This document shows positions 4,592 through 61,024 of a stretch of 64,000 bases of DNA, in pieces. The stretch comes from Rugosibacter sp. (lineage in GTDB: Bacteria > Pseudomonadota > Gammaproteobacteria > Burkholderiales > Rhodocyclaceae). A program made the position numbers and the translations under genes. Within the stretch, counting starts at the first letter, position 1, and every line of letters starts with the position of its first letter. Location: positions 5,021 to 69,020 of the forward strand of contig SCUZ01000063.1 of NCBI GenBank assembly GCA_004322535.1, given 5' to 3'. Below the pieces are notes generated by a model. That model saw only the letters and a program-made list of their open reading frames with translations, had not been told where the DNA came from and did no database searches.

Positions 4592-7426
4592 ATGGAACTT
4601 GCCAAGAGCTTTGAACCTGCTGAAATTGAAAAACGCTGGTACCCGATCTGGGAATCTCGTGGCTACTTTGCAGCGGGGTTGGACACAACCAAAACCGATA
4701 GTTTCTGCATCCTGCTACCGCCACCGAACGTTACCGGCACGCTGCACATGGGCCACGGCTTCAATCAGGCCATCATGGATGCGCTGACCCGCTACCACCG
4801 CATGCGCGGCGACAACACGCTGTGGCAACCGGGCACAGACCACGCGGGCATCGCCACGCAAATTGTGGTCGAGCGCCAGCTCGATGCGCAGGGCGTCTCG
4901 CGCCATGATCTGGGCCGCGAAAAATTCATCGAAAAAGTGTGGGAATGGAAGGAATATTCCGGCGGTGCCATCACGCAGCAAATGCGCCGCCTGGGAACCA
5001 GCCCCGACTGGACGCGCGAGCGCTTCACGATGGATGCGGGGCTGTCGAAAATCGTCACCGAAACCTTTGTGCGGCTGTACAACGAAGGCTTGATCTACCG
5101 TGGAAAACGGCTGGTGAATTGGGATCCGGTGCTGGGTACAGCCGTCTCCGACCTGGAAGTGGTGAGTACGGAAGAAGACGGCTCGATGTGGCACATTCGC
5201 TACCTACTGGCCGACGGTAGCGGCCATCTCACTGTTGCCACGACGCGGCCGGAGACCATGCTCGGCGACGTGGCGGTAATGGTGCACCCCGAAGACAAAC
5301 GCTATGCGCATCTCATTGGCAAGCACGTGATTTTGCCGCTGTGCAACCGCGAGATTCCCATCATTGCGGATAGCTATGTCGACAAGGAGTTCGGCACCGG
5401 CGTGGTGAAAGTCACGCCTGCACATGACTTCAATGACTATGCGGTAGGGCAGCGCCACAAGCTGCCGATGATCTCAATCCTGGGCCTCAACGCCAAAATC
5501 AACGACACCGCACCAGAAAAGTACCAGGGACTTGACCGCTTTGAAGCCCGCCGTGTCATCATCGCCGACCTTGAGGCGGCGGGACTTTTGGAGAGCGTCA
5601 AGCCCCACAAGCTGACAGTGCCGCGCGGCGACCGCACGGGCGTCATCATCGAACCGATGCTCACCGACCAGTGGTTCGTGGCCATGAGCAAACCCGGCAC
5701 GGATGGCCAGTCCATCGTTGGCAAGGCGCTGGAAGCTGTCTCATCGGGCGAGATCAAGTTCGTGCCCGAAAACTGGGTGAATACCTACAACCAGTGGCTG
5801 AACAACATCCAGGACTGGTGCATCTCGCGCCAGCTTTGGTGGGGACATCAGATTCCCGCCTGGTATACCGATGATGGCAAAATCATCGTCGCGCACAATG
5901 AGGCTGAAGCAACGTCAATCGCGGCAAAGAATGGTTATACCGGCCAACTCAAGCGCGATGAAGATGTGCTCGACACCTGGTATTCCTCTGCTCTGTGGCC
6001 GTTCTCCACGCTCGACTGGACGCCCGAATATCCAACGCAATCCAACCCCGCACTGGATCTTTACTTGCCATCAACGGTGCTTGTCACCGGCTTTGACATC
6101 ATTTTCTTTTGGGTCGCGCGCATGGTGATGATGACCAAATACCTCACCGGCAAAATTCCCTTCAAGCATGTCTATGTGCATGGCCTGATTCGCGACGCCG
6201 AAGGCCAGAAAATGAGCAAGTCAAAGGGCAATGTGCTCGACCCGATTGATTTGATCGACGGCATCACGCTCGATGATCTGGTGGAAAAGCGCACCACCGG
6301 CTTGATGAACCCGAAGGACGCGCAAAAAATCGAAAAGCGCACGCGAAAAGAATTCCCCGGTGGCATTCCCGCTTTCGGCACCGATGCGCTGCGCTTTACC
6401 TTTTTGAGCCTGGCCAGCCCCGGCCGCGACATCAAGTTCGACATGCATCGCTGCGAGGGCTATCGCAATTTCTGCAACAAGCTGTGGAACGCCACGCGCT
6501 TTGTGCTGATGAACTGCGAGGGCAAGGACTGCGGCATTCCGCCCGTCCGCGAAAACGCAGCCTGCGGCGGCATCGGGCCGATTGAACTCTCGCCCGCCGA
6601 TCGCTGGATCATCAGCCGCCTGCAAGCGCTGGAAGCCGACGCCGCCAGACATTTTGCCGATTACCGTTTCGATCTGCTCGCCAAGACCGCGTATGAATTC
6701 ATTTGGGATGAATACTGCGACTGGTATCTGGAACTGGCCAAGGTGCAGCTGCAAAATGGCAACGAAGCCCAGCAACGCGGCACGCGGCGCACGCTGATCC
6801 GCGTGCTGGAAGCCGTGCTGCGCGTGGTGCATCCGCTGATTCCTTTTATTACTGAAGAACTGTGGCAGAAAGTCGCCCCGATTGCAGGCAAAGCCACAGG
6901 CGATGGCAGCGAATCCATCATGCTGCAAGCCTACCCGCAAGCCAACAAAATTGCCATCGACCCCGCCGCTGAAGCCTGGATTGCGACCTTGAAGAATATG
7001 GTGAACGCCTGCCGCAGCCTGCGTGGCGAGATGAATTTATCGCCCGCGCAGAAAGTGCCATTAGTCGGCGCTGGTGAGACGGCGACATTGCAAGCTTACG
7101 CACCTTATTTAGCCGCGTTAGCCAAACTATCCGAAGTCACGGTAGCTGAGACCTTGCCAGACACCGATGCCCCCGTGCAAATCGTCGGCGACTTCCGCCT
7201 GATGCTGAAAATCGAGGTTGATGTCGCTGCTGAAAAAGAGCGCATCGGCAAAGAGCTCGCGCGCATTGAAGGGGAGATCATCAAAGCCGAAAACAAGCTG
7301 CAAACCGCGAGCTTTGTCGAACGCGCTCCAGCCAATGTCGTCGCCCAGGAGCGCGAGCGACTGGCGGGGTTTGTCGCACTACGAGACAAGCTGAGCGCAC
7401 AAATATCGCGGCTGGTTTCATGTTGA
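4592..7426 (+). CDS. valS: Valine--tRNA ligase
   Basis: 944 aa with class I motifs [13 protein letters not shown] and KMSKSKGN, plus a C-terminal coiled coil. Confidence 0.97.
7060..7084 (+). repeat. 25-nt dispersed repeat, forward copy, 22/25 to consensus
   Basis: attagtcggcgctggtgagacggcg. Inside valS, read as PLVGAGETA. Confidence 0.7.
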
Positions 7427-7472
7427 TTGCGGACCGATCCACTGAATATTGAGTCTTGCGTATTGATGCCGA

Positions 7473-8245: not shown

Positions 8246-9789
8246 TGCAAATTGCCCTCATCATCGGTGCCGGCCCCGCTGGCCTGACGGCTGCGCTTGA
8301 ACTTGCCAGGAACTCCGACATCCGGCCCATCGTGCTCGAAGCGCTCAACGATGTCGGTGGAATTTCTCGTACCATCGAATACAAGGGCAACCGCATGGAC
8401 ATCGGTGGCCACCGCTTCTTTTCCAAGTCTGACTGGGTGATGAACTGGTGGCGACAGATGATGCCCGTTGCCCCTGACAAGGACGCCGACGGTTTTTCGG
8501 TAATCCCCAAGAATGATCGCCACCTGCTGGTCCGCCCACGCCTCTCGCGCATTTATTTTCTGCGCCGCTTTTTTGACTATCCGATTTCGCTTTCAAAGAA
8601 AACCATGGCCAACCTCGGCCCCGTGCGGCTCGTGCGCATCGGCGTCACTTACGTTTGGGCCAGCCTGTTTCCACGCAAGCCGGAAAAAAACCTGGAAGAC
8701 TTTTTCTACAACCGTTTCGGCGGCGAGTTGTATCGCACCTTTTTCAAGGACTACACCGAAAAAGTCTGGGGCGTCGCCTGCCGCGCCATCAGCCCGGAAT
8801 GGGGCGCGCAACGCATCAAGGGCTTGTCAATCATCAAAGCCATTCTGCATGCGGCAAAAAAAACCTTTTCCAGTGGCAGCAGCGCCAATGTCGCGCAAAA
8901 AGGCACAGAAACCAGCCTAATCGAGCGCTTTCTCTATCCCAAATTCGGCCCGGGCCAAATATGGCGCATCGCTGCCGAAGAACTGTGCGCCAAAGGCGGC
9001 GAAATTCACTTTGGCTTGAAGGTCGTCACGCTCAAACGCGAAAATAATCGCATCGTCGCGATTGAGACCGAAGATGCGGACAAGGTTCGGCGCTGGTGGC
9101 ACGGCAACTGGGCGATCTCCACCATGCCCCTGCGTGACATGGTGCAAGCCTTGCAACCCCCTGCGCCGGAAGAGGTGCTTACCATAGCGGATGGCCTGAT
9201 GTATCGCGACTTCATCACCATGGGCCTGCTGCTGAAAAAACTCAAACCACGTCCTGAGGGAAAACCACCGCTGAACCTTTTGCCCGACACCTGGATTTAC
9301 ATCCAGGAACCGGATGTAAAAATTGGCCGCCTGCAAATTTTCAACAACTGGAGTCCGGCGCTGGTCAATGATCCCGACACGATCTGGATGGGCCTCGAAT
9401 ACTTCTGCCAGGAGGAGGATGAGCTCTGGCGCATGAGTGACGAAGAATTTTCGCGCTTTGCCATTGCCGAACTGGCCAAGATCGACCTCATCGATCCCGC
9501 CGACACACTCGACTGGCACGTCGCCCGCGTACCTAAAGCCTACCCGGCCTATTTCGGCAGCTACGACCGTTTCGATACCCTGCGCGAATTCACTGATGGC
9601 ATCAGCAATCTGTTCCTCGTCGGCCGCAACGGCATGCACCGCTACAACAACCAGGACCACTCGATGGTCACCGCCAAGCTTGCGGTGGAAGCCATCCTTT
9701 CGGGCTCAACCGACAAGTCGGCGATCTGGACGGTGAATGTCGAAGAGGAATATCACGAAGAAAAAAGTAGAAAAACAAATTCTGCCTAG
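8242..9789 (+). CDS. FAD/NAD(P)-binding oxidoreductase (amine-oxidase / UDP-galactopyranose-mutase-like)
   Basis: N-terminal [15 protein letters not shown] Rossmann dinucleotide motif. ATGA overlap with the gtrA-like gene. Confidence 0.65.
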
Positions 9790-11138: not shown

Positions 11139-12992
11139 TCAAAAAGTCGGCGCTGGTGACACGGCACGCAGAGGCGAGCAGGCATACAGCACCGCGTCAG
11201 GAAGGACAGCCAGCGGCGCAATGCTCGGGATCAGCTGTGTTGCCACCACCCAATCCACTATCGGATCAGCGCACAACGTCAGGCGACGGGACGCACCCTC
11301 TACCAATACCCCACGCCGCTGCCACTCGGTGAACTTCTCCTGCGAAAACACCACGCCAATGCCCTGCGCCTTGCTCCAATAATTGGCGGTATGCAGGGTC
11401 AGCCAGACTGTCAATTCCCGTTCCGGCCAGACCACAATATCGCCGCTCTGGATGTATTTGACGAATGGATGGGGTGACTGGCGGCTGTTCAGATAACTCG
11501 CTTCCATAAGCCGCAATGGCTCCGGACGCTTATCCCAGTATGCGAACACCCAGATCAGCAGCCCTGCGATAACAATTGGCATCATCTTCATCGCCAACAA
11601 CAGCATATTTTTCTGGCCAAACAGCCATGCCAACAACAACGGCAGTGGCCACATGCTCCCCGCTACAAGACCATGCAGCCAAAGAGCCTCTGGCCACCAA
11701 GGCGTAATAAAACGCGCACCGGCAATATCAAGCTCCACGATGAATCCCGGCAGCGCCACAAGCCAGAGCGCAATCATCACTACCCAAACCGTCTTGCGCC
11801 AGGAGCAAGCCCTTTCCGCGAGCATTACGAGATAATGCCTGGGCACAAGACTCGCCCCGCAGATTAGCCAGACAATGGGTTGAAGGAATGCGTCATCCAG
11901 TGCCATCAGTGCAAGCACACTACCAATCAGCAAAGGCACGACACGAAAAGTGGCTGATGCACATTGAATCACATCCAGCAAGGCAAAACCCGCGACCGGA
12001 ATCGCCAGCCAGAACACCCGCCAGGGTTGCCCCTGCACCACAATTTCGAGTGGCAGCCAATAGGCAGAAACCAGCGCCAGCAGCAACCCGCCACAAGTCA
12101 GCGCAAGCAGTCGCGCATACAGTGGTCGCAGTCGTTGGCTACCGGCACGTGCACCGGCGAGCAGTCCGGCCAGCACAGTAAAATACACCGGTAGCCGAGT
12201 GTTATCAGGCGACTTGAAAAGAATATCCGACGTGGCGCGCAGATAATCCAGCCACTCGCCGCCCATCAGGCGCCAGCGCGGAGCATCTAAATTGAGCATA
12301 CCAATAGCTATCAAAGCCAGCGTGGGGAGTAACGTCAGCGCAAGCGCCTGGCGCATCGGCAGACGGGTAAGTACAATCAGCACCAAGGGCCAGATACCCA
12401 GCAAAGGATGCAAAAGACATGACAATAGCGCAACCCCGCTGGCCCACCACGTCCTGCCGACGGCCAGCAGTCCTACTGCTATGACGCCGGCTGGCATGGC
12501 CCACGAGCGCGCCGTGGCGAAGTTTTCATTGAGCACAAAAACTGATGCGTTGGGCGAATAACTTACTGATAACATCACGCCGAACAGCACCGCAAAGCGC
12601 CCCGCCAGCGTGTCGCCACGCTCATTAGCCAGCATCGTGCGTGAAAGCGCAAACAACGCCGCAACCCACAGCGCACCGCCTGAAAGCACGACCAATCGCG
12701 CGGCGACATCCAGCCCCAGCACACGCACCAGCTCGCCATAGACTGGGGTGAACAGGCTAAGACTGCCTTGCGAACCAAAGCGGAAGAACAGATCGTTGGC
12801 TAGCGCCTCGGGATAAATCCAGTGCGCAGCGATCAGCCCATACACGCGCGCATCGTGCCAGATGCCTTGATAGGGATGATTAAGCAGCCAGAACAGGAAA
12901 GCCAGCAGCAGCAAGCTGCCTGTTGCCCAGGGGCCGTGCCGTATCAGCAGAGCCGACTTTTCAGTCGCTTTTTCAGCCGCCCTGGACGACAT
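11139..12992 (-). CDS. Large polytopic membrane protein (possible glycosyltransferase-C-like); function unknown
   Basis: 617 aa with many TM segments. Its last 8 codons plus the stop come from a copy of the 25-nt repeat, and a second copy sits near its 5' end. Confidence 0.55.
   Translation of the reverse strand: MSSRAAEKATEKSALLIRHGPWATGSLLLLAFLFWLLNHPYQGIWHDARVYGLIAAHWIYPEALANDLFFRFGSQGSLSLFTPVYGELVRVLGLDVAARLVVLSGGALWVAALFALSRTMLANERGDTLAGRFAVLFGVMLSVSYSPNASVFVLNENFATARSWAMPAGVIAVGLLAVGRTWWASGVALLSCLLHPLLGIWPLVLIVLTRLPMRQALALTLLPTLALIAIGMLNLDAPRWRLMGGEWLDYLRATSDILFKSPDNTRLPVYFTVLAGLLAGARAGSQRLRPLYARLLALTCGGLLLALVSAYWLPLEIVVQGQPWRVFWLAIPVAGFALLDVIQCASATFRVVPLLIGSVLALMALDDAFLQPIVWLICGASLVPRHYLVMLAERACSWRKTVWVVMIALWLVALPGFIVELDIAGARFITPWWPEALWLHGLVAGSMWPLPLLLAWLFGQKNMLLLAMKMMPIVIAGLLIWVFAYWDKRPEPLRLMEASYLNSRQSPHPFVKYIQSGDIVVWPERELTVWLTLHTANYWSKAQGIGVVFSQEKFTEWQRRGVLVEGASRRLTLCADPIVDWVVATQLIPSIAPLAVLPDAVLYACSPLRAVSPAPTF
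11142..11166 (+). repeat. 25-nt dispersed repeat, forward copy, 23/25
   Basis: aaaagtcggcgctggtgacacggca. Its antisense encodes the last residues AVSPAPTF plus the stop of the 617-aa membrane protein. Confidence 0.9.
12937..12961 (-). repeat. 25-nt dispersed repeat, reverse copy, 22/25
   Basis: tgccgtatcagcagagccgactttt. Lies in the 5' end of the 617-aa membrane-protein gene (EKSALLIRH). Confidence 0.75.
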
Positions 12993-14732: not shown

Positions 14733-14757
14733 CGCCGTCTCATGAGCGCCGACTATT
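14733..14757 (-). repeat. 25-nt dispersed repeat, reverse copy, 21/25
   Basis: cgccgtctcatgagcgccgactatt. Intergenic. Confidence 0.6.
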
Positions 14758-15585: not shown

Positions 15586-15609
15586 AGAGCGCACCAGTGG
15601 GTGCGCTCT
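15586..15609 (-). terminator. Rho-independent terminator after the pilin pair
   Basis: Perfect 10-bp stem AGAGCGCACC (15586-15595) / GGTGCGCTCT (15600-15609) with a 4-nt loop. On the minus strand it is followed by TTTTTCC. Confidence 0.8.
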
Positions 15610-15632
15610 TTTCTAATGAAAAACAGCCTTAA

Positions 15633-16076
15633 TTACGAGGAGGAGGCAGTCGTCGCCAAGCCGTTTGCAGTCGTCACGTTAGCACCAGTGCACCCAGTAG
15701 TGGCACAGGTACCAGACTCAGCAATCCCGCCACCCGCACTTGAACCAATGAACGTCTTATTACCCTTTTTAGAACCGGAAGCCACAGCAAATGCAACGCC
15801 TGAAACTTCGTTGAAGCTTACAATCGTGTTTGCAGAACACTGCATATCAAAACCTGTTCTAACAAAAACCGGCGTCGCTACCGCGACACCAGCACCTCCA
15901 TTAATCAGCACCTTGGCGGCAACCCCGCCATTGCAGGCACATAGTTCACCAGTTGGCCCGGTTGAAGAGCTAGGTGCCGTAACATTCGCATTTGTGCCGG
16001 AGCCATCACAGGCCGCAGCAAACGCGCCTGCCGAGAAGAAGCTGGAGATCAAACCAATCACAAGTATCTTTTTCAT
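15633..16076 (-). CDS. Secreted Cys-rich Gly/Thr/Ala/Ser-rich protein; candidate detached pilin globular domain (PilA-C-like)
   Basis: Sec signal MKKILVIGLISSFFSAGAFAAA and six Cys. AAAGGA RBS. Begins 16 nt after the short pilin stop. Confidence 0.55.
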   Translation of the reverse strand: MKKILVIGLISSFFSAGAFAAACDGSGTNANVTAPSSSTGPTGELCACNGGVAAKVLINGGAGVAVATPVFVRTGFDMQCSANTIVSFNEVSGVAFAVASGSKKGNKTFIGSSAGGGIAESGTCATTGCTGANVTTANGLATTASSS

Positions 16077-16092
16077 TTGAATGTCCTTTGAA

Positions 16093-16272
16093 TTAGTTAG
16101 CGTTAGCGAGTGCAGAAGTCAGCAGATTTTTCGCATCCGACTGTGCGGCCTTGTTCTCGCCCTTCTTGGTGTACTCGGTGAACTGCGGAATCGCAATCGC
16201 GGCCAGAATGCCGATAATTGCCACGACAATCATCAGCTCGATCAGGGTAAAACCCTTTTGCAGCTTGTTCAT
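16093..16272 (-). CDS. Truncated type IVa pilin (59-aa prepilin, 52-aa predicted mature protein)
   Basis: [31 protein letters not shown], a class III signal with Gly-1, Phe+1 and Glu+5. AAGGAG RBS upstream of ATG 16272. The track start at 16290 is rejected. Confidence 0.85.
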
Positions 16273-16322
16273 ATGTAATCTCCTTTGCAAAGAAATGCGA
16301 CGGATGCCGCTACGATGGATAA

Positions 16323-16338
16323 AGCACAGGCCATGCCA
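16323..16338 (-). promoter_or_regulatory. Sigma-54 (-24/-12) promoter for the short pilin
   Basis: The minus strand reads TGGCATggcctGTGCT, with GG and GC at the exact TGGCAC-N5-TTGCW spacing. It ends about 50 nt upstream of the pilin ATG. Confidence 0.6.
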
Positions 16339-16439: not shown

Positions 16440-16460
16440 TTCTTTCAAATTAATTCCGCA

Positions 16461-23324: not shown

Positions 23325-23349
23325 CGCCGTATGACCAGCGCCGACTTTT
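23325..23349 (-). repeat. 25-nt dispersed repeat, reverse copy, 24/25
   Basis: cgccgtatgaccagcgccgactttt. Intergenic, between the sucD stop and its terminator. Confidence 0.92.
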
Positions 23350-26416: not shown

Positions 26417-26977
26417 ATGACGCCCCCCCCTCAAACTCATCAACCGATGCAACTGGCGACGTTAGGTGGCGGTTGTTTCTGGTGCCTTGAAGCGGCCTTC
26501 ATTCAACTCGCCGGGATAAATTCAGTGATCTCCGGCTATGCGGGCGGTTACACGGACAATCCCGATTACACCAGCGTGTGCAGTGAGCGCACCGGCCATG
26601 CGGAAGTCGTTCAAGTGCATTTCGATCCGACGCTCATTGACTACCACACACTGCTCGAAGCCTTTTTTGCCATTCATGATCCGACCACGCTCAACCGGCA
26701 GGGCAACGATGTTGGCACGCAATATCGCTCCGTCATTTTCACTCATGATGCCGAACAAGCCACCAGTGCAAATGTACTGATTGCCGAGCTCACCGCGAAT
26801 CAAATATGGCCGGAACCTATCGTCACCGCCGTCTTGCCAGCACCGACTTTCTGGCCGGCGGAAGCGTATCACCAGAATTATTTTGCAAATAATCCCAACC
26901 AGCCCTACTGCCAGTTTGTTGTTGGGCCGAAAGCGGCGAAGTTACGCCAGGTTTTTGCGCACCGTTTAAAAAAATAA
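26417..26977 (+). CDS. msrA: Peptide-methionine (S)-S-oxide reductase
   Basis: ATLGGGCFWCLEA active site, GHAEVVQV, DPTTLNRQGND.G.QYRS. Start moved to ATG 26417. Confidence 0.92.
   Translation: MTPPPQTHQPMQLATLGGGCFWCLEAAFIQLAGINSVISGYAGGYTDNPDYTSVCSERTGHAEVVQVHFDPTLIDYHTLLEAFFAIHDPTTLNRQGNDVGTQYRSVIFTHDAEQATSANVLIAELTANQIWPEPIVTAVLPAPTFWPAEAYHQNYFANNPNQPYCQFVVGPKAAKLRQVFAHRLKK
26827..26851 (-). repeat. 25-nt dispersed repeat, reverse copy, 20/25
   Basis: cgccgtcttgccagcaccgactttc. Inside msrA (AVLPAPTF). Confidence 0.55.
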
Positions 26978-28253: not shown

Positions 28254-31200
28254 TCAGATTTCTGGCGCACGACGCAAGTCGAGCGTCATGGGGTAATCCG
28301 GATTGCGACCTTCACGCCTGACATGCAACGGGCCAGGGGTATGGCCGTGATTCCAGAAACGCGCCACGCGCCGTGCCTCTGCTTCATTCGCATTGACGGG
28401 GAACGTCTCGTAACTGCGCCCCCCAGGATGCACTACGTGATAAGTGCAACCGCCGATGGCACGCCCGCTCCAGGTATCGACCAGATCGAACACCAGCGGC
28501 GAATGTACGCCTATCATCGGATGCAAACCCGAAGGCGGCGCCCAGGCACGGTAACGCACGCCAGCGACATATTCACCGCGAATGCCGGTCGGGCTGAGTG
28601 GCAGCGGGCGACCATTGCAGGTAACAATATGGCGCGCGTCATTCATCTGGCGCACTTTGACCTGCAAGCGTTCCAGCGATGAATCGACGTACCGCGCCGT
28701 GCCACCAGCGCCGACTTCTTCGCCCAGCACATGCCAAGGCTCGATGGCCTGGCGCAATTCGATTTCAATATTATGCTGCACCACACTGCCAAAGCGCGGA
28801 AAACGAAATTCCAAAAACGGTGCAAACCATTCAAAATCGAAGGCATAACCGGCACGTTGTAAATCCTGGACGACATCGTGCAGATCTTGCGTGACAAAGT
28901 GCGGCAGCATGAAGCGGTCATGCAGCTCCGTGCCCCAGCGGGTCAGGCCGCCTTGATACGGTGCTTGCCAGAAACGCGCGACCAGCACCCGCAACAGCAG
29001 CATTTGCAGCAGGCTCATCTGCGCATGCGGTGGCATCTCGAACCCGCGAAATTCAAGCAGGCCCAGACGACCGGCCGAGCCATCGGGCGAATAGAGTTTA
29101 TCGATGCAGAATTCAGCGCGATGCGTGTTTCCGGACAGGTCAATCAACAAGTTGCGCAACAGGCGATCCACCAGCCAGGGCGCCAGGGTTTCCTCTCCGG
29201 GCTTTAGCCGCTCGGCCATTTGCTGAAAGGCGATTTCCAGTTCATACAGGCTCTCGTGCCGCGCCTCATCCACGCGCGGCGCCTGACTGGTCGGGCCGAT
29301 GAACATACCGGAAAACAGGTAGGACAATGCCGGATGATTCTGCCAATAGGTAATCAGGCTCATCAGCATATCCGGCCGCCGCAGGCAAGGTGAGTCAGCC
29401 GGCGTGGCTCCGCCCAGCGTGACATGATTGCCGCCACCCGTGCCGGTGTGACGGCCATCAAGCATGAATTTTTCGGTGCCCAGCCGCGTCTGCCGCGCCA
29501 ATTCATACAATGTTTCCGTATTCTCGACCAGCTCTGGCCAAGAGTGCGCCGGATGAATATTCACTTCGATCACACCGGGGTCAGGCGTGATCCTGAATAC
29601 CTTGAGGCGTGGATCGTCAGGCGGCGGATAGCCTTCGATACGTATCGGCAACGATAGCGCAGCCGCCGTTTTTTCGATGGCATCGATCAGGTCAACAAAG
29701 CTTTCCAGCAATGGCACGGGCGGCAAGAAAACATGCAGTACGCCCTCGCGCACCTCGACACACAAAGCGGTATGCACAATCTCGTGGGGCGCGTAATGCT
29801 GCTTCGCCGTTTTCAGCGGACGCGCTGCACTGTGTAGTAATGACACAACATGAAGTTCACCCGGCGTATCGAAAGGATCACGGCCAAACTCGGGCTCCTT
29901 GTCTTCAGCCGCCACCTCAGGCAAGGAAGCCAGGGGCAAACGCAGACCCAGGGGAGAATCCCCCGAAACCAGATACAGGTGCTCGCGACGTAAAGGCCAC
30001 GGACTTGAGGAAAAGTCGGCACTGGTGATACGGCGATGCTTGCCACCAGCGGACTCGCCCTCTGCCTTCGATGAAAGCAGCAGCGCCTTGAGCGGCAACA
30101 CATAGCCTGCCACTTCGCCCAACCCTTTTTCAATCAGTCCAGCAATACGACGACGTTCACTGTCCAGCTTCAAATCAGTTGATAACGGATCAAAATTCTC
30201 TGGCCAACGCTGTTCCTGATCAATAGCATGAACCACATCCTCATAGGCCGGAATCACAAATCCGGTATCCAGCCCGAGTAATTTCGCGAGATGATGAATA
30301 AAGCGTTGCGCATCCCGCACGTTATGTTGTTTAGCGCCCGCCGTTACCGCCGTGGTTGCCAGCAGTTTCGGCTCATACCACAGCGGATTGCCGTCAACAC
30401 GCCAGTAGCAGCCCAGCGCCCAACGCGGCAGCGGCTCGCCGGGATACCACTTGCCCTGACCGAAATGCAGCAGCGCACCGGGTGCCAGCGTGTCCTTCAG
30501 GCGCACGAGCAACTCGCGCGATAACCCGCTTTTCTTTTCTGACAACGCGGTGAAGTTCCATTCCATGCCTTCCATATCGTCGATAGAAATAAAAGTGGGC
30601 TCACCACCCATCGTGAGCCTGACATCATTTTTCTTCAGCTCGGTATCCACCTGATGGCCAAGATCTTGAATCGCCTGCCATTGCACGTCGGTATAGGGCT
30701 TGGTGACACGTGGATCCTCATGAATGCGAGTGATCTGCATGGAAAAATCAAAGTGGGCTTCGCACTTTCCAGTCGCGCCAATCACCGGTGCAGCAGACGC
30801 CGGCATGGCGGTACATGCCAATGGAATATGGCCTTCGCCAGCTAACAGACCGGAGGTCGCATCAAGGCCAATCCAGCCAGCGCCAGGGATATATACCTCC
30901 GCCCAAGCATGCAGATCAGTGAAATCGACGGTTGTGCCGGACGGGCCATCAAGCGCCTTCATATCAGACACCAGTTGAATCAAATAACCCGAAGCAAAGC
31001 GCGCCGCCAGTCCGTAATGCCGCATCGCCTGCACAAGCAACCAGGCAGAATCGCGGCAGGAACCGCGTTTCAAATCAAGCGTCTGTTCGGGCGTCTGCAC
31101 CCCCGGCTCCAGACGCACGATATAGGCAATGTCGCGTTGCACACGCTGGTTGATCGCCACCAGCATGTCAATAGTACGCATTTTCTGGCTCAACAGATCG

Positions 31201-35575: not shown

Positions 35576-36322
35576 TCACACCGGATTGTCGATGTCGATA
35601 AATTCGCATTCAATACCGCAAGTTTTGTTCAGCTGTGCCGCCAAGGCCATCACGCCATAACGTTCGGTCGCATGGTGACCTGCTGCCAGATACGCCATAC
35701 CGGTTTCGCGCGCCAGATGCACCGTCTGCTCGGAGATTTCGCCGGAAACAAAAATATCGGCACCCGTCGCCAATGCTTCTTCAAAATAACTCTGCGCGCC
35801 GCCGGTACACCAGGCGATGCGTTTTATCGGACGAGTCGCTTCGCCTATCAACAAAGGTGTGCGCCCTAAGCTGCGCTCAACGACAGCAGCCAAATCACCC
35901 GCAAAAGTCGGCGCTGGCGGGACGCCGAAAAAGCCAATGTCCTGCTCGCTAAATCGCCCTTCGATCGTCCAACCCAGACGTGCCGCAAGTTGCGCATTAT
36001 TGCCCAGCGTCGGGTGAGCATCCAGCGGCAGGTGGTAAGCAAAAAGACTCATGTCAGTAGCAAGCAAGCTCGCCAGCCGCTGACGACGATAACCGGTAAT
36101 ACGACCATCTTCACCTTTCCAAAACCAGCCGTGATGCACCAGCAGGGCATCGGCCTGACGTTTAACCGCCGCATCAACCAGCGCTTGGCTTGCCGTGACA
36201 CCACAAACAACGCGGCGCACTTCTTCCCTGCCTTCCACTTGCAAGCCATTTGGGCAATAATCGCGAAAGCGTGCGGCCTCAAGCAGCCCGTCAAGAGTCA
36301 TCCGTAGTTCCTCACGCTGCAT
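35576..36322 (-). CDS. Nif3-like dinuclear metal-center protein (YbgI family)
   Basis: DYCPNGLQVEG ... LLVHHG ... LPLDAHP ... GHHATERYG. The start is ambiguous (36322, 36340 or 36301); 36322 matches the YbgI N-terminal length. Confidence 0.85.
   Translation of the reverse strand: MQREELRMTLDGLLEAARFRDYCPNGLQVEGREEVRRVVCGVTASQALVDAAVKRQADALLVHHGWFWKGEDGRITGYRRQRLASLLATDMSLFAYHLPLDAHPTLGNNAQLAARLGWTIEGRFSEQDIGFFGVPPAPTFAGDLAAVVERSLGRTPLLIGEATRPIKRIAWCTGGAQSYFEEALATGADIFVSGEISEQTVHLARETGMAYLAAGHHATERYGVMALAAQLNKTCGIECEFIDIDNPV
35903..35927 (+). repeat. 25-nt dispersed repeat, forward copy, 21/25
   Basis: aaaagtcggcgctggcgggacgccg. Inside nif3 (VPPAPTF). Confidence 0.7.
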
Positions 36323-38313: not shown

Positions 38314-38762
38314 CAGGTGCGTTCCGTTGGCGTGGCGGGTGTAGCTGTTTTTGCCAGTTCAGCGGATGTTTTTTCAGACGACGCAGTGCCTGGAAAAGTC
38401 GGCGCTGATGATACGGCGCGAAACGAGTCCTCTTGAGCAACAGCGATATCCTCAGCTTCTAATCCGGGAGGCGCAATTTTTTGCATGACAGCCGACGCCA
38501 TCTCGGACTCCACTTCATGCATTTCATGGCGCACGGTAGATTCAGCCGCAACGATACGATCAGCCACATCTTGCTGCATTTTTTTCAATTCTTCGAGTTG
38601 CATTTCGCGGCTGATATCTGCTTTGACATCATTGACGTAGCGACGCAACCGACCGGACAAAAGCCCAGCCGTGCGTGCCACTTTGGGTAGGCGCTCGGGG
38701 CCAATCACGATGAGCGCAACTACCGCGATCAACAATAGCTCAGAAAATCCGATATCAAACAT
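38313..38762 (-). CDS. tatB: Twin-arginine translocase subunit TatB
   Basis: MFDIGFSELLLIAVVALIVIGPERLP. Confidence 0.9.
   Translation of the reverse strand: MFDIGFSELLLIAVVALIVIGPERLPKVARTAGLLSGRLRRYVNDVKADISREMQLEELKKMQQDVADRIVAAESTVRHEMHEVESEMASAVMQKIAPPGLEAEDIAVAQEDSFRAVSSAPTFPGTASSEKTSAELAKTATPATPTERT
38394..38418 (+). repeat. 25-nt dispersed repeat, forward copy, 24/25
   Basis: aaaagtcggcgctgatgatacggcg. Inside the tatB C-terminal tail (AVSSAPTF). Confidence 0.9.
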
Positions 38763-43166: not shown

Positions 43167-44231
43167 ATGTCCGAATTTTGGAGCGATGTTGTCAAAAGGC
43201 TCACGCCTTATGTCCCCGGCGAACAGCCCAAGCTGGCCAATCTGGTTAAGCTCAACACCAACGAAAACCCCTATGATCCCAGTCCACGCGTGCTCAAAGC
43301 CATTCGCGGCGCCGTGGGGGAAAATTTACGGCTTTATCCAGACCCGAATGCCGATGCGCTGAAAGAAGCCATTGCCGACCACTTTGCTGTGACATCCATC
43401 AACGTGTTTGTGGGCAATGGCTCTGACGAAATTTTGGCGCACGTTTTTTTGGGCTTGCTCAAACATGACCAGCCGGTACTTTTCCCCGACATCACTTACA
43501 GCTTTTATCCCGTGTATTGCGGACTGTATGAGATTGCTTTTAACACCGTACCGCTGACTAAAGACTTTTCCATCCGCATTGCAGACTATGACCAACCCAA
43601 TGGCGGCATTATTTTTCCCAATCCGAATGCGCCCACAGGCCGAGCAATTTCTCTAGACGAAATAGAGCAGCTTTTGCAAATGCATCCACATAAAGTAATA
43701 GTGATCGACGAAGCCTATGTCGATTTTGGCGGCGAGAGTGCCATTCCCCTCACCCATCGCTATCCGAATCTGCTGGTCGTGCACACCTTCTCCAAATCGC
43801 GCTCACTGGCTGGTTTGCGCGTGGGGTTTGCCATTGGCCATTCCGATTTAATTGAAGCGCTCGAGCGGGTAAAAAACAGCTTTAACTCTTACCCGCTGGA
43901 TTCCTTGGCCATGGCTGGCGCCATCGCTGCACTGGAAGACAAAGCCCATTTTGAAAGAACCCGCAAAGCCATCATCCATACGCGCGAAAACTTGGTATCC
44001 GCGCTGGAAGCACTCGGCTTTGAAGTACTGCCCTCAGTTGCCAACTTTGTCTTTGTCCGCCACCCACAGCACGACGCCGAAAAATCGGCGTTGGCGCTAC
44101 GCCAACATGGCATCGTGGTACGCCATTTCAAGTTGCCACGCATTGAACAATTTCTGCGCATTACCATCGGTACTGATGATCAATGCGCAATTCTGATCAA
44201 GGCCCTCCAGGAAATTCTGGCACAACGCTAA
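43167..44231 (+). CDS. hisC: Histidinol-phosphate aminotransferase
   Basis: LNTNENPY ... IDEAYVDF ... [15 protein letters not shown] (PLP-binding Lys). It is on the opposite strand to all other his genes. Confidence 0.93.
44080..44104 (+). repeat. Degenerate copy of the 25-nt repeat, 19/25
   Basis: aaaaatcggcgttggcgctacgcca. Inside hisC (EKSALALRQ, compare EKSALLIRH at 12937). Confidence 0.4.
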
Positions 44232-45538: not shown

Positions 45539-45563
45539 GAAAGTCGGCTCTGGTGAAGCGGCG
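45539..45563 (+). repeat. 25-nt dispersed repeat, forward copy, 21/25
   Basis: gaaagtcggctctggtgaagcggcg. Intergenic, between the foreign ORF and the hisD 3' end. Confidence 0.7.
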
Positions 45564-47573: not shown

Positions 47574-49077
<1,504 letters not shown>

Positions 49078-54871: not shown

Positions 54872-56320
54872 GTGGCCGCGCCAAAAGACAAAGCTGTCAT
54901 ATTACTCGTTGATGACGACCCGCTCATCAGTGATACCTTGGGATACTTCCTGAGCCGCGATTACACCGTCCTGACCGCAAGTCGGCGCAAAGAAGCAATC
55001 ACCCTGTTACGCCAGGCAGAGTCAGCACCCGCCGTCGCATTGATAGATCTTGGCCTGCCCCCAACGCCCCATGCCCCGGATGAAGGTTTCGCCCTGATCG
55101 CTGCAATTCTTGCGCATTCTCCTCACATCCGGATTATCGTTCTCTCTGGTCAAAGCGAAGAAGCCAACGCCCGTCATGCACGCGCCCTGGGTGCCACCGA
55201 GTTCGTTTCCAAACCAGCGAGCCCGGAAGAAATACTTAAGCTGATTCAGCATGTTCTCTCGTTCAACGACAGCGCCACCCAAATAGAAGATGGCCTTGTT
55301 GGCAACAGTACCGCGATGCAAAACCTGCGAGCGCAAATCAAACAATTTGCCCCTTCGCCTTTTCCGGTATTAATAGAGGGCGAGTCAGGCAGCGGCAAAG
55401 AACTCGTCGCCTCAGGCTTGCACCGATACGCAAAGCGCGCCAATGAACCCTACTTGACTTTGAATTGCGCCGCTATCTCGCCTAACCTGATGGAAGCTAC
55501 GTTGTTCGGGCATGGCAAAGGGGCTTTTACTGGCGCAACCGGTGCGCGCTCAGGCTATTTTGAAGATGCTGCAGGTGGCACCCTGTTTCTGGACGAAATT
55601 GGCGAGCTGCCACTCGAGCTGCAACCCAAATTATTGCGCGTGCTGGAAAACAACGAGTTTCAGCGAATTGGCGAAACACACTCCCGCCACACTGCCGCAC
55701 GCATTGTGGCTGCCACAAATCGAGATTTAAAAAAAGAAGTTCGCGAGGGGCGCTTCCGTGCCGACTTGTATCACCGGCTGTCAGTGTTCACCATTAACGT
55801 TCCGCCTGTGCGCGAACTGGGCGCTGACCGACTGCAACTGTTTGAGCACTTTCGCACGCTGTACAGCGCACAGACGGGCTTTCCCGCATTTCGGTTGAAT
55901 CAAAAAACGACAGAGCGCTTGTTGGCTTACTCGTTTCCGGGCAACGTACGTGAATTACGCAACATTGTCATTCGCCTGATCACCAAGCACGCCGGCAAAA
56001 CCCTGGCGCTGCATGAACTCGAAGCCGAGCTGGATATTGCTGGCGCGGCGAGCATTGCCGCTGTATCCGCCGTATCGCCAGCGCCGACTTTTGCTACCAG
56101 CGCCGAGCTCGTCGCGTATGCCCTGCGTGAATTAAAAACACAACATGAGTTCAGTCTTGATGCCACCTTACGACACTGGGAAGAAGCCTATATTGAAGCT
56201 GCCCGCCAATTAGCACATGACAATTTAAGTCAAGTCGCTCGTCTTTTGGGCATTAATCGCACGACACTCTATAACCGCATCGACGCGCTCGGCCGCGCCA
56301 AGCGTCCACCCTCACAGTAG
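54872..56320 (+). CDS. Sigma-54-dependent response regulator (receiver + AAA+ + Fis-type HTH)
   Basis: ILLVDDD..IDLGLPP receiver, Walker A GESGSGKE, a GAFTGA loop and a C-terminal HTH. GTG start. No histidine kinase is adjacent. Confidence 0.9.
   Translation: MAAPKDKAVILLVDDDPLISDTLGYFLSRDYTVLTASRRKEAITLLRQAESAPAVALIDLGLPPTPHAPDEGFALIAAILAHSPHIRIIVLSGQSEEANARHARALGATEFVSKPASPEEILKLIQHVLSFNDSATQIEDGLVGNSTAMQNLRAQIKQFAPSPFPVLIEGESGSGKELVASGLHRYAKRANEPYLTLNCAAISPNLMEATLFGHGKGAFTGATGARSGYFEDAAGGTLFLDEIGELPLELQPKLLRVLENNEFQRIGETHSRHTAARIVAATNRDLKKEVREGRFRADLYHRLSVFTINVPPVRELGADRLQLFEHFRTLYSAQTGFPAFRLNQKTTERLLAYSFPGNVRELRNIVIRLITKHAGKTLALHELEAELDIAGAASIAAVSAVSPAPTFATSAELVAYALRELKTQHEFSLDATLRHWEEAYIEAARQLAHDNLSQVARLLGINRTTLYNRIDALGRAKRPPSQ
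56068..56092 (-). repeat. 25-nt dispersed repeat, reverse copy, 24/25
   Basis: cgccgtatcgccagcgccgactttt. In the linker of the sigma-54 regulator (AVSPAPTF). Confidence 0.92.
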
Positions 56321-56342
56321 CGACAGGAGCTTTAACCACTCT

Positions 56343-57698: not shown

Positions 57699-57806
57699 CA
57701 ATATGCCAAATAATGATCTCATTACTTATTAAAATCATTGAGTTAAATAAATAACATCATGTGTTATGCTAATATCCGGGTATTACTGCTTGATTGAATA
57801 GCCACT

Positions 57807-59675
57807 TTGGAGAACCCATTGCGCCCACACTTTAAACCAGCGCTCTCTGCTACGTACTTCGCCAGCCTTGTCTTCTTTTTGGCGGCCTGTAGCACCATCC
57901 AGCCACCTGCGGTTTCCAATAGTCATCTCCATGCTGAAAGCATTCCATCTGCCGCCGTCTCACGCGACATCCCAACACCTGTTGCCGCTGCCGTCACGTT
58001 GTCCCGCCCAACGGCTTCAGCCAAAACAGAAACTTACTCCGTATCCGTGCGCAATATTCCAGTGCAGGATTTACTCTTTGCTCTGTCGCGCGATGCCAAA
58101 ATTAACGTCGACGTACACCCCGGTATCAATGGCATCGTCACGATCAATGCCATAGACCAAACCTTGCAGCAAATTCTCACCCGCGTCGCCAAACAGGTGG
58201 ATATGCGTTGGGAACTTGACGGGCCGAATTTGATTGTCATGCCGGATTCACCCTTCCTGCACACTTATAAAGTCGATTACGTGAATATGTTGCGCGATGT
58301 CAGTAGTTCGGTTTCCATCAACACACAGATTGCTTCAACAAGTTCCGGGGCCAGCACGAGCACCTCCACCGGAGGAGGTAACAATTCAACCACTACGGTC
58401 ACCAGCAAAGCGCAAAACAATTTTTGGGTCTCTGTTGAAAAAAACATCAAAGACATCCTGCGCGAAACGGACAAAATTCTGCCCGAAGGCTCCAGCGAAA
58501 CCATCATCGAACACGATAATCAACAAGAAACCACAGGAACAGGCGCCTCATCAACTGGGGCAGGTAAAGGTGGTAAGGGGAATGCACCGTCGCTGGCAGG
58601 AAGCCCTAACCCTGCCAGCCTGCAAGAACAAGGTACCACTGTCGTCAAACGCACTACTTTTCGTGAGGCAGCATCTGTCATTGCCAATCCCGAAGCGGGC
58701 GTGATTGTTGTCCGCGCCACGTCTCGCCAACATGAAAAAGTACAGGAATACATTGATCAAGTCACCCGTAATGCCGGCCGCCAGGTCATCATCGAAGCGA
58801 CTATTGCTGAAGTGACACTAAACAACAATTACAAACAGGGCATCAACTGGCAAAGCCTGCGCTCACTAAGATCCCCTGGAACGGCCGGATTCTCATTGGC
58901 ACAGTCCCCAACCGGTCTAGCAAACGGCGCTGTGCCTGACTCCTTTGCCGCACCAGGCGCTTCGTTTTTACTCAACTACGTGGCGCCTGGCCTGGGCATT
59001 TCATCCACGCTGACTTTGCTGGAAACCTTTGGTAACGTCAAAGTATTGTCGAGCCCAAAAATCAGCGTGCTGAATAATCAGACAGCCATGCTGAAAGTAG
59101 TCGATAACGTGGTCTATTTTGAAGTCAAATCGGATTCCACGATCGGCCAGGTGAATACACAAAAGTCATTCACCACAACTGCTAAATCCATCGCCGTTGG
59201 CCTGGTCATGAATGTCACACCACAAATTAGCGAAGCGAACATGATTACCCTGAATGTGCGCCCCACCATCTCAAGAGTGACGGGTTTTAAAACCGATCCA
59301 AATCCGGATATTCCCTCTACCATACCTAATCGCGTGCCGGAAATACAAACCCGCGAAATGGAATCCGTATTACGCCTGGCAGATGGTGAAATCGCTGTCA
59401 TGGGCGGGCTGATGGAAGATAAAATAAATTACAATACGGATGCAGTTCCCGGGCTAGGTGGTTTGCCCGGCATAGGCAACTTCTTCCGTAGTCGAGATGA
59501 CACCAATACTAAAACCGAGCTGGTCATTTTTCTAAAGCCAACGGTCATCCGCGATGCCAGTCTGAATGGAGACTATCGTGAATTTCGGCAACAGCTTCCC
59601 AACCAGGATTTTTTCATCAACAATCCTGGCCCTGATCAAAAAATGATCGAAAGCCCCAGGACTCGCACACCATGA
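57807..59675 (+). CDS. mshL: Lipoprotein secretin (MshL-type pilus secretin)
   Basis: Lipobox FFLAAC, N0/N1-like repeats and the secretin C-domain (..VLSSPKISVLNNQTA...VPGLGGLPGIGNFF...TELVIFLKPTVI). TTG start. Confidence 0.8.
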   Translation: MENPLRPHFKPALSATYFASLVFFLAACSTIQPPAVSNSHLHAESIPSAAVSRDIPTPVAAAVTLSRPTASAKTETYSVSVRNIPVQDLLFALSRDAKINVDVHPGINGIVTINAIDQTLQQILTRVAKQVDMRWELDGPNLIVMPDSPFLHTYKVDYVNMLRDVSSSVSINTQIASTSSGASTSTSTGGGNNSTTTVTSKAQNNFWVSVEKNIKDILRETDKILPEGSSETIIEHDNQQETTGTGASSTGAGKGGKGNAPSLAGSPNPASLQEQGTTVVKRTTFREAASVIANPEAGVIVVRATSRQHEKVQEYIDQVTRNAGRQVIIEATIAEVTLNNNYKQGINWQSLRSLRSPGTAGFSLAQSPTGLANGAVPDSFAAPGASFLLNYVAPGLGISSTLTLLETFGNVKVLSSPKISVLNNQTAMLKVVDNVVYFEVKSDSTIGQVNTQKSFTTTAKSIAVGLVMNVTPQISEANMITLNVRPTISRVTGFKTDPNPDIPSTIPNRVPEIQTREMESVLRLADGEIAVMGGLMEDKINYNTDAVPGLGGLPGIGNFFRSRDDTNTKTELVIFLKPTVIRDASLNGDYREFRQQLPNQDFFINNPGPDQKMIESPRTRTP

Positions 59676-61024
59676 GCCTGCTCATGGATGCGCTCAAAAA
59701 AGCGGAATTGGCCAAGCGCGAAGGCCGCGGTGAAAGCAGCCTCAGCACTAACCGTCAGGCAACAGAAAACTCTTCTTCCAGCCTGACACTGGAACCACTC
59801 TCTGCACCCGCAGCAGACGCCGCATCACAAACCAGCACGACTGCCCAAGACAACCAATCACCCGACCCCTTACCTCAATTGCCAGTGCATCTTGAATCGC
59901 TCGATGATGCATTTCTGGCGGAAATGGAGATTGCTGCCCGACGCACACCGCCAGTGTCGGCCGGAGCAACGATCACTTCCTCAAAGCCACGCACCCAGCC
60001 TGTCACAACCCAGTCTGCGTTCAAACCTGAACCCTCCACCGCGCAAAACCTGTTCACGGCAAAGCAAGCCACCCCAGCGGTACGCAATAAGAATTTCGCC
60101 CTATTACTGGGTAGTTCGACTACGCTGGCCGTCATTGCCATCGGGATTTATTTTTGGTGGCAATTACAATCCCACGCGCCACTACCTGCTGTCAGCCTGC
60201 TGCATGAAGTCCCGCTAACCCGCTCGCCGACGCCTTCCACTGTCGCCGTCCTGCCAGCGCCGACTTTTTCTGCGTCAATACCATTGGCTAACAACGCAAC
60301 AGCAACGGACGACAATAGCGTCATCGCAAAACCCAAAAACTCTCCGCGGGCACTTGGCCAAGCATCGCAAAAATCCAGGCGCGGTACGGGTGACGCAATG
60401 AATACAGCAGATGCAACTGATGCCAATGATCCTGTCCATCTAACCAAAGCGCCGCAGCAGGTGGATCCTTCTTTGCTACGTGGCTTTGACGCATTCAATC
60501 GCGGTGACCTTGCCAGCGCACATGCCGAATACACCCGCGCCCTGCAATCTGATCCGCGCAATACCGATGCGCTGCATGGTCTGGCAGCCATTGCCCAGAA
60601 ACAGGGGCATTGGGATCAAGCCGCGTGGGACTATCAAAAAATACTCGAAGCCAATCCACAAGACGCCGTGGCACTTGCTGCACTGATTAACATCCGCAGC
60701 CAGGCGAATCCGGCAATGGCCGAGAGTCGCTTGAAAACGCTGGCTGTTGCCCAGCCAGAACTAGCCGCTCCCGCTTTTTCACTAGGCAATCTGTACGCCC
60801 GCCAAGGTCGCTGGAGCGAGGCACAGCAAGCCTACTTTCAAGCCTACAGCGCAGAGCCAAACAATCCCGACATTCTCTATAACCTCGCGATCAGTCTCGA
60901 GCACATGCGCCAAAGCAAATTAGCGGTTCAATATTATGGCCAAGCAATAGCAGCGGCAAAAACTCATCCGGCTAATTTTGACAATACGCAAGCTGCTGCA
61001 CGCATGCAGGCCTTGCAGCCTTGA
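59672..61024 (+). CDS. TPR-repeat pilus-biogenesis protein (MshN-like)
   Basis: N-terminal MSLLMDALKKAE, one TM segment and C-terminal TPR repeats. ATGA overlap with the secretin gene. Confidence 0.7.
   Translation: MSLLMDALKKAELAKREGRGESSLSTNRQATENSSSSLTLEPLSAPAADAASQTSTTAQDNQSPDPLPQLPVHLESLDDAFLAEMEIAARRTPPVSAGATITSSKPRTQPVTTQSAFKPEPSTAQNLFTAKQATPAVRNKNFALLLGSSTTLAVIAIGIYFWWQLQSHAPLPAVSLLHEVPLTRSPTPSTVAVLPAPTFSASIPLANNATATDDNSVIAKPKNSPRALGQASQKSRRGTGDAMNTADATDANDPVHLTKAPQQVDPSLLRGFDAFNRGDLASAHAEYTRALQSDPRNTDALHGLAAIAQKQGHWDQAAWDYQKILEANPQDAVALAALINIRSQANPAMAESRLKTLAVAQPELAAPAFSLGNLYARQGRWSEAQQAYFQAYSAEPNNPDILYNLAISLEHMRQSKLAVQYYGQAIAAAKTHPANFDNTQAAARMQALQP
60244..60268 (-). repeat. 25-nt dispersed repeat, reverse copy, 21/25
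   Basis: cgccgtcctgccagcgccgactttt. Inside the TPR (MshN-like) gene (AVLPAPTF). Confidence 0.75.

Follow-up and report, generated by a model that had tools for sequence, protein, structure and literature searches.

Why should a single 25-bp word recur in both orientations, mostly inside genes, along a stretch of Rugosibacter DNA? We address this question for a stretch of 64 kb from Rugosibacter sp. (contig SCUZ01000063.1, positions 5,021 to 69,020), hereafter called the window, in which a first, sequence-only reading had noticed the repeated motif and proposed it as a candidate DNA uptake signal sequence. When both strands were searched for the motif core CCAGCGCCGACTTTT (that is, AAAAGTCGGCGCTGG) with at most two mismatches, we obtained 15 matches; across 100 shuffles that preserve dinucleotides, the average was 0.18 and the highest count 2. 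The extreme over-representation that had been claimed is thus real. The full 25-mer, with at most three mismatches, matched 9 times in the window versus 0.00 expected, and pieces of the motif make up all of the commonest 10-mers and 12-mers in the window. All 14 sites listed before were found in place, with 20-24/25 identity to the consensus used then; their orientations, recounted, are again 6 forward and 8 reverse, and a Pfam-based gene map places 11 of them inside open reading frames (ORFs), those at 14733, 23325 and 45539 being intergenic. The degenerate hisC copy at 44080 (19/25) and the 10-mer GCCGACTTTT at 4524 are also present; the latter is probably a remnant or a chance partial match. 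Two copies had been overlooked, a good one at 2857 and a decayed one at 9082. In total, the window holds 16 recognisable copies and one decayed copy, at a density of about 1 per 4 kb, and about 80% of the motif copies lie within ORFs (13 coding copies in the window).

The anatomy of the motif was read from a matrix of 232 copies pooled from 119 loci in genomes other than that of the window. Positions 0-24 carry high information content, which drops to approximately zero on either side; about 21 positions across the 25 bp are informative. The unit, AAAA-GTCGGCG-CTGGYGR-GACGGCG, consists in this order of an A-tract (AAAA), a half-site GTCGGCG, a spacer CTGG-YGR and a second half-site (G/T)ACGGCG, and the two half-sites read as a direct repeat, 14 bp apart. 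The clade consensus is AAAAGTCGGCGCTGGCGRGACGGCG, or, written in parts, AAAAGTCGGCGCTGG-CG(A/G)G-ACGGCG, versus AAAAGTCGGCGCTGGTGATACGGCG in the window. At positions 15-18 the window has TGAT/TGAG where the clade consensus has CGRG, which looks like a dialect or an effect of the lower guanine-cytosine (GC) content of the window. Motif copies fold into no hairpin, and a search of the whole 64-kb window against Rfam returned 0 families at the gathering threshold. That is, neither an RNA family nor a hairpin accounts for the motif, and a structured RNA was ruled out on the Rfam result.

The orientation of the copies follows no replication strand. GC skew is negative throughout the window, which therefore lies on one replichore, and there 8 forward and 8 reverse copies stand side by side, 7 of the 15 scored copies agreeing with local skew. 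Among the copies of other genomes, 62 of 113 agree with local GC skew (p=0.35). The test of strand skew proposed by the sequence-only reading hence gave no polarity, and a polar motif of the Chi type or of the FtsK-orienting type (KOPS) was ruled out by this lack of chromosomal polarity together with the roughly 21 informative positions.

Reading frames were assigned by a longest-ORF criterion; at each of the 13 coding copies in the window, its result agrees with the gene map. At least four frames had been claimed; copies of other genomes use all six (101 sense and 105 antisense, with about 11% outside long ORFs). The recurrent peptides were borne out as AV(S/L/P)PAPTF, KVGAG(D/E/G)T, EKSAL..R and RRITSADF. 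Clustering of the 175 motif-bearing chromosomal ORFs yielded 168 unrelated clusters. The motif is thus a DNA-level and not a protein-level signal, and an origin as a protein motif was ruled out by six-frame use and unrelated host genes.

Copies are spaced more evenly in the window than random placement would give (coefficient of variation 0.59 versus 0.95, P=0.015), and no gap between them falls below 1306 bp (P=0.003). The two 4-kb bins of lowest GC in the window (16-24 kb, GC 0.49-0.51) belong to its longest motif-free stretch, 14.8-23.3 kb. Positions 15600-23200 encode a GAF-HD-GYP protein, a GAF-MshEN-T2SSE ATPase, a metallo-beta-lactamase-fold protein, an FHA protein and a PP2C phosphatase, and may represent a laterally acquired signalling island. 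Since recently acquired genes lack uptake sequences (PMC2817400), the low-GC, motif-free stretch fits this rule.

We then followed the motif beyond the window. The ValS protein of the window is 100% identical to that of a Rugosibacter sp. metagenome-assembled genome (MAG) and 80% identical to that of the cultured R. aromaticivorans; Rugosibacter is placed in the Sterolibacteriaceae, Betaproteobacteria. When 185,579 species (GTDB), each represented by one genome, were scanned with the pattern AAAAGTCGGCGCTGGNNNNACGG, which has 19 specified bases, at least 119 stretches carried it, where about 4 were expected by our own estimate from the database size. Among the matches listed, record titles name Sulfuritalea (22), 'Methyloversatilis' (12), Rugosibacter (7), Propionivibrio (4), Sulfurisoma (1), Sterolibacteriaceae (1) and Rhodocyclaceae or Rhodocyclales (52); the remaining titles are generic Beta-, Gamma- or Pseudomonadota MAGs, one Thiobacillus and one Burkholderiaceae MAG. 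Carrier stretches among these matches span a GC content of 0.51-0.69, so the word is constant over a wide range of base composition.

Loci of about 23 kb anchored on valS offer a sample that is unbiased with respect to the motif. Copies were found in the valS loci of R. aromaticivorans Ca6, a second Rugosibacter and a Sulfuritalea MAG, versus none in the 69 kb that Georgfuchsia, Denitratisoma and the MAG CAWKXK01 provide together (Table 1). As an outgroup we used 80 valS-anchored metagenome loci (1.13 Mb, valS 64-81% identical), in which 8 core matches with at most two mismatches occurred, about the chance level. The ACGGCG half was also present in only 2 of these 8, both on Sulfuritalea-like contigs, and the motif is essentially absent from the outgroup loci. 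The motif is therefore abundant beyond the window, as the sequence-only reading required, in the sampled loci of clade genomes, including the cultured Ca6, and absent from outgroups. An artefact of MAG assembly was ruled out, since this cultured strain carries the motif in its finished genome.

In a neighbour-joining tree of valS (loci L121-L127 and L250-L253), which is tentative as a single-gene tree without support values, the carriers form two groups, Rugosibacter and Sulfuritalea/OW818671, and the motif-less group of Georgfuchsia, Denitratisoma and CAWKXK01 falls between them. Two further loci, L251 and L252, adjoin Sulfuritalea on this tree, yet are without the motif.

How do copies arise? 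At the valS site, the motif-less orthologues of Georgfuchsia, Denitratisoma and CAWKXK01 read CCG CTG ATT GCC GCC GGC GAT, versus CCA TTA GTC GGC GCT GGT GAG in the window and in Sulfuritalea. The changes CTG>TTA, GCC>GGC and GCC>GCT yield the motif at equal length and with no indel, and the residues stay identical or conservative (PLVGAGE with the motif, PLIAAGD without it). A rare TTA leucine codon gives part of the A/T-rich 5' end of the motif. The copies in folK, the amine-oxidase gene and hisC are orthologous between species. R. aromaticivorans and the Rugosibacter MAG L126 have a perfect orthologous copy in folK, better kept than the 78-81% identical flanks around it. The amine-oxidase site is decayed in the window and has a perfect core in R. 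aromaticivorans and L126; the hisC site, also decayed in the window, has a perfect core in the Rhodocyclaceae MAG SMAG_U8306 (L009). These alignments indicate that copies are gained and lost through point substitution at orthologous sites and are not transposed. Transposition is unlikely also because a 25-bp insertion would shift the reading frame.

The valS gene offers a further observation. In the two other Rugosibacter loci, L126 and L121, lineage-specific insertions in the ValS linker lie right after the conserved KVPLxGxG segment. The L126 insertion (L126:12440-12560) itself bears a good copy, TAAAGTCGGCGCTGGTGAGACGCCG, next to the ancestral site, at which the window has its copy.

The motif also occurs in phages. 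The same pattern was found in at least 120 stretches of IMG/VR viral contigs (L128-L247), which hold 187 copies in 1.12 Mb. The density of extra copies is 0.06 per kb in these viral loci, versus 0.14 in chromosomal loci and 0.25 in the window. When 133 motif-bearing viral ORFs were scanned against PHROG, 21 were DNA methyltransferases and a few were anti-repressors, ParB-like nucleases, helicases or small terminases, the rest being scattered singletons. The methyltransferases are of the N6/N4 type (DPPY...FxGSGTT), and 18 of them, with pairwise identities of 25-100% (median 44%), share the C-terminal tail KVGAGDTA-VQGDMLLPAN. In the DNA, this tail corresponds to the 25-nt motif with a conserved 30-nt block, GTGCAGGGCGACATGCTTTTGCCTGCCAAC, after it. 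The conserved part sets in precisely at the 5' edge of the motif, upstream of which the sequences are unrelated; in one pair of methyltransferases, the upstream part and the motif are common and the downstream part differs. Because conservation switches at its edge, the motif marks a mosaic junction in these genes. The 30-nt block occurs 24 times, every time after the motif, and only in viral loci.

Taken together, over-representation, both orientations without polarity, single units made by point mutation, and dialects shared across a clade are the features of the class formed by the DNA uptake sequence (DUS) of Neisseriaceae and the uptake signal sequence (USS) of Pasteurellaceae. The genomic in-silico hallmarks of DUS and USS are present, in a sequence, of a length and in a clade that are new. 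Even spacing and turnover at orthologous sites are two further properties of the DUS/USS kind. Of the four outcomes named beforehand as refuting an uptake signal, three were checked (frequency beyond the window, on sampled loci; polarity; a longer repeat), and none came out against it. We therefore favour, at a probability of roughly 55%, the reading that the motif is a DNA uptake signal sequence, by analogy a functional counterpart of DUS and USS, in a subset of the Sterolibacteriaceae (Rugosibacter, Sulfuritalea and allied MAGs). That it represents a third, independently evolved uptake-specificity system in free-living Betaproteobacteria, with a long bipartite 25-bp signal that has spread into temperate phages as a mosaic crossover point, has in our judgement an even chance of being right.

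The Neisseria receptor for DUS is ComP, a minor pilin carried on a type IV pilus. By analogy, a surface-exposed receptor of the transformation machinery would bind the word on extracellular double-stranded DNA, and might read the two tandem half-sites. Pilus retraction would bring the DNA through the secretin, and one strand would enter the cytoplasm and recombine with the chromosome. If word-bearing fragments were taken up and recombined more often than others, mutations that create or improve copies would spread by molecular drive, limited by purifying selection on the encoded proteins. Such a drive would leave hundreds of point-substitution copies in any frame and orientation, fairly evenly spaced, shared by relatives and missing where the receptor is missing, a picture that agrees with the one observed. 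Temperate phages resident in these hosts would gain copies by the same route, and the shared 25-bp copies could serve as crossover points between phages.

Known uptake sequences number 1,471, 765 and 1,892 copies per genome, with 34-65% of copies in ORFs, and they share over-representation, conservation at the family level with dialects, lack of polarity, coding copies that inflate certain peptides, a mutational origin and absence from genes acquired recently (PMC2817400). The density of the motif (about 1 per 4 kb) and its ORF share of about 80% are in the range of these sequences (PMC2817400). Compared with the Neisseriaceae DUS, the motif likewise is a hyper-abundant word of a betaproteobacterial clade at the family level, has lineage dialects, occurs unpolarised in both orientations and within genes in several frames, and is missing from neighbouring lineages. 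Its sequence, in contrast, is unrelated overall, and it is a bipartite 25-bp unit versus 10-12 bp for DUS. The motif consensus AAAAGTCGGCGCTGGYGRKACGGCG contains neither the DUS 12-mer, which we take to be ATGCCGTCTGAA, nor an in-register CTG core, and the motif is accordingly no DUS. A string AGACGGC in many copies is part of what we take to be the DUS reverse complement, TTCAGACGGCAT, a lead only. The ORF share also differs, at about 80-89% versus 34.5% for the DUS of N. meningitidis (PMC2817400).

The likeness to the Pasteurellaceae USS lies in an extended, multi-part motif of about 25-30 bp that opens with an A-run and whose copies arise by point mutation. USS are reportedly spaced evenly in H. 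influenzae (Karlin et al. 1996), as is the motif. Copies are in both cases mostly coding (65% in H. influenzae, PMC2817400), with recurrent peptides and a density of the same order. Nevertheless, the motif core AAAAGTCGGCG differs from the 9-bp USS core AAGTGCGGT/ACAAGCGGT and the downstream element is GC-rich, which places the motif outside USS. The host belongs to the Beta- and not the Gammaproteobacteria, the second element is a GC-rich repeated half-site instead of AT tracts, and more positions are near-invariant. USS have AT-rich, helically phased flanks and measure about 30 bp overall. As leads only, the 5' part of the motif, AAAAGTCGGCG, resembles what we take to be USS, AAAGTGCGGT, and its segment AAAAGTCGG resembles what is presumably the Haemophilus USS, AAAGTGCGG.

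The sequence-only reading had pointed to two type IV pilus-type gene sets in the window. One of them stands: an MSHA (mannose-sensitive haemagglutinin)-type cluster at 56.3-64 kb, whose secretin passes the MshL equivalog cut-off (266.9 versus 250.2 bits) and whose ATPase has an MshE cyclic di-GMP domain and is followed by a GspF-like platform protein. The other reduces to the lone GAF-MshEN-T2SSE ATPase among HD-GYP, FHA and PP2C signalling genes, and neither is a recognised DNA-uptake pilus, so that the two lend the uptake reading little weight. The gene order at 54872-63987 is sigma-54 response regulator, ExeA/MshM-like AAA ATPase, MshL-type secretin, TPR protein, MshE-type ATPase and GspF-like platform protein. 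In a near-identical strain (L249:11215-18040) the series continues with ORFs of 543, 209, 147 and 1090 aa, for which no Pfam or NCBIfam match was found, and then a 258-aa prepilin-like protein. Together, 54872-63987 and its continuation form an uncharacterised MSHA-like pilus or secretion system. The region of about 60.3-70.8 kb is motif-free.

Several points weigh against an uptake signal. MSHA-type pili are not known to take up DNA. PilQ, ComEA, ComEC, DprA and ComP were not seen in the gene map of the window, where no search was aimed at ComP, ComEA or ComEC, and we found no literature on competence or transformation in these genera, or on uptake sequences in Rhodocyclaceae or Sterolibacteriaceae. 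The motif densities rest on about 64 kb and on 23-kb samples. Within the family, the distribution on the single-gene tree is patchy and would therefore require loss, lateral acquisition or an undetected dialect. With about 21 informative positions over 25 bp, the motif exceeds both DUS (12 bp) and the USS core (9 bp) in length and information; no more than about 11-19% of its copies are intergenic, and the inverted-pair terminators typical of DUS are missing. DUS are depleted in mobile elements, whereas the motif is frequent in viral contigs. Finally, viral copies favour the G-rich strand, in 83 of 122 cases and, once the methyltransferase copies are set aside, in 70 of 107 (p=0.002), a bias that chromosomal copies do not have and that could stem from a composition-dependent origin of a G-rich word or from a direction-dependent role in phages. 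The phage data keep three alternatives alive: an intracellular binding site, a Chi-like self-marker and a phage-borne transfer signal.

The best of these, although we consider it unlikely, is that the motif forms a dispersed array for an intracellular DNA-binding protein (nucleoid, repair or recombination), or a word of the HIP1 kind kept by selection on chromosome biology. A bipartite direct repeat with G-W-CGGCG half-sites 14 bp apart resembles a protein recognition site, and the even spacing, the conservation of orthologous sites, the presence of the motif in phage DNA that replicates in the same cells and the fact that no competence genes were seen nearby in the window would all suit such an array. 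HIP1 of cyanobacteria (GCGATCGC) is likewise clade-specific, hyper-abundant, mostly intragenic and without features of mobile elements; however, it is an 8-bp palindrome, unlike the asymmetric 25-bp motif. We know of no nucleoid, segregation or repair system with a non-palindromic, intragenic site of about 21 informative bases every 4 kb in random orientation. Binding sites would moreover be expected to avoid costly positions in essential genes, yet copies are written into valS, murA and folK by rare-codon changes (CTG>TTA). Copies that decay in one species and are perfect in another fit a balance of drive and mutation better than selection on each site.

Clearly less probable is a Chi-like hotspot or self-marker, read on linear DNA by RecBCD, AddAB or a defence system, which would there turn from degradation to recombination, and copied by phages for protection. 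E. coli Chi occurs at a density similar to the roughly 1 per 4 kb of the motif, and the motif shares with Chi its location in coding regions, conservation within a clade and enrichment in some phages (Chi at about 1 per 4-5 kb). The window dialect holds GCTGGTGA, a 7/8 match to what we take to be E. coli Chi, GCTGGTGG; this is a lead only, and the octamer is not kept in the clade consensus, which has GCTGGCGR. Enrichment in phage contigs, including real phage genes, the mosaic recombination junction in the phage methyltransferase genes and the lean of viral copies to the G-rich strand would all agree with such a role. But Chi is strongly co-oriented with replication, typically at about 75%, whereas the chromosomal copies are unpolarised on the one replichore of the window and elsewhere, and all Chi sites known to us measure 5-8 nt versus about 21 informative bases over 25 bp.

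Slightly less probable still is a transfer signal of phage origin, that is, a pac-like signal or one for packaging or recombination like that of a gene transfer agent, which would spread by drive through phage particles. The sheer number of viral stretches with the motif and the 24 stretches in which it is fused to the 30-nt methyltransferase block, conserved from the motif edge, are in its favour. The density of extra copies, however, is lower in viral loci than in chromosomal loci or the window, the majority of viral copies lie dispersed among unrelated genes, in either orientation, just like those of the host, and the 30-nt block never occurs in chromosomal loci. No packaging system known to us relies on hundreds of sites along the chromosome that point either way.

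That the motif is a miniature mobile element, or has spread by gene conversion, is very improbable: the copies are many and near-identical, yet they lie in frame in essential genes that a 25-bp insertion would break, have no shared flanks (as had been claimed and as a comparison of flanks bore out), terminal repeats, target duplications or hairpin, and differ from orthologous empty sites by substitutions without indels, so that repetitive extragenic palindromes (REP), miniature inverted-repeat transposable elements (MITE) and similar miniature mobile repeats, with about 80-89% of copies in ORFs, are effectively refuted. Nor are the copies internal parts of a longer mobile repeat, given zero information beyond the 25 bp, the 168 unrelated clusters and substitutions in place of insertions.

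Table 1. Motif copies in the window, copies per valS-anchored locus, and phage methyltransferase loci that end in the motif and its 30-nt block
Feature	Position	Strand	Details
Copy AAAAATCGGCGCTGGCAATACGGTG	2857..2881	+	21/25, core 14/15; antisense in folK (HPPK)
Truncated 10-mer AAAAGTCGGC	4524..4533	-	5' end of pcnB
Copy ATTAGTCGGCGCTGGTGAGACGGCG	7060..7084	+	22/25; sense in valS, peptide LVGAGETA
Decayed copy AAGGTTCGGCGCTGGTGGCACGGCA	9082..9106	+	19/25; amine-oxidase gene
Copy	11142..11166	+	23/25; antisense, encodes AVSPAPTF-stop ending a 617-aa protein of unknown function
Copy	12937..12961	-	22/25; sense, extreme 5' end of the 617-aa ORF (same ORF as the 11142 copy)
Copy AATAGTCGGCGCTCATGAGACGGCG	14733..14757	-	21/25; intergenic, two ABC-transporter-associated genes on either side
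Copy	23325..23349	-	24/25; intergenic, begins 3 nt past the sucD stop codon
Copy	26827..26851	-	20/25; antisense in msrA (AVLPAPTF)
Copy	28695..28719	-	22/25; sense in DUF2126/transglutaminase gene (EVGAGGTA)
Copy	30011..30035	+	24/25; antisense in the DUF2126 gene that also holds the 28695 copy (RRITSADF)
Copy	35903..35927	+	21/25; antisense in NIF3/DUF34 gene (VPPAPTF)
Copy	38394..38418	+	24/25; antisense in tatB (AVSSAPTF)
Decayed copy	44080..44104	+	19/25; sense in hisC-like aminotransferase (EKSALALRQ)
Copy	45539..45563	+	21/25; intergenic, convergent TGL-like gene / hisD
Copy	48612..48636	-	23/25; sense in murA (KVGAGDTV)
Copy	56068..56092	-	24/25; antisense in sigma-54 response-regulator gene (AVSPAPTF); also in near-identical strains L248/L249
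Copy	60244..60268	-	21/25; antisense in TPR (MshN-like) gene, MSHA-type cluster (AVLPAPTF)
R. aromaticivorans Ca6 (finished genome)	~23-kb valS locus		3 copies
Second Rugosibacter	~23-kb valS locus		6 copies
Sulfuritalea MAG	~23-kb valS locus		2 copies
Georgfuchsia toluolica	~23-kb valS locus		0 copies
Denitratisoma sp.	~23-kb valS locus		0 copies
MAG CAWKXK01	~23-kb valS locus		0 copies
Phage methyltransferase tails	L129 (1827-1906), L140, L155, L176, L184, L185, L197, L199, L209, L212, L215, L230, L237, others		

The gene map also shows an unusual interruption of the histidine genes. At 43167-45491, the hisC-like aminotransferase gene and the TGL-like gene (protein-glutamine gamma-glutamyltransferase) lie on the plus strand and split the minus-strand his genes, with the hisB side on one flank and hisD-hisG-murA on the other.

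We searched 8 million full texts for the motif string on either strand and found unrelated primers only. No published description of the motif was found, and judged by its sequence it is neither DUS nor USS. A 2025 survey confines sequence-specific uptake signals to two families (10.1101/2025.10.24.684340). Both families with known sequence-specific uptake are associated with animal hosts. If the motif is indeed an uptake signal, uptake specificity evolves repeatedly, and self-preferential transformation is not peculiar to two host-associated families. The clade would then offer an independent system for testing explanations of uptake sequences by molecular drive versus selection, and the contrast of carrier and non-carrier genera (Rugosibacter and Sulfuritalea versus Georgfuchsia and Denitratisoma) lends itself to phylogenetic profiling for the receptor. 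Since a cultured and fully sequenced carrier exists, R. aromaticivorans Ca6 (CP010554.1, 2.93 Mb), the uptake hypothesis is directly testable, and the 25-mer placed on constructs might make Rugosibacter or Sulfuritalea genetically tractable. Even without a role in uptake, a 25-bp word in hundreds of genes and in phages across a clade needs a new explanation. With such a role, it would suggest that natural transformation takes place in uncultured lineages of groundwater and lakes and in those that degrade pollutants such as polycyclic aromatic hydrocarbons.

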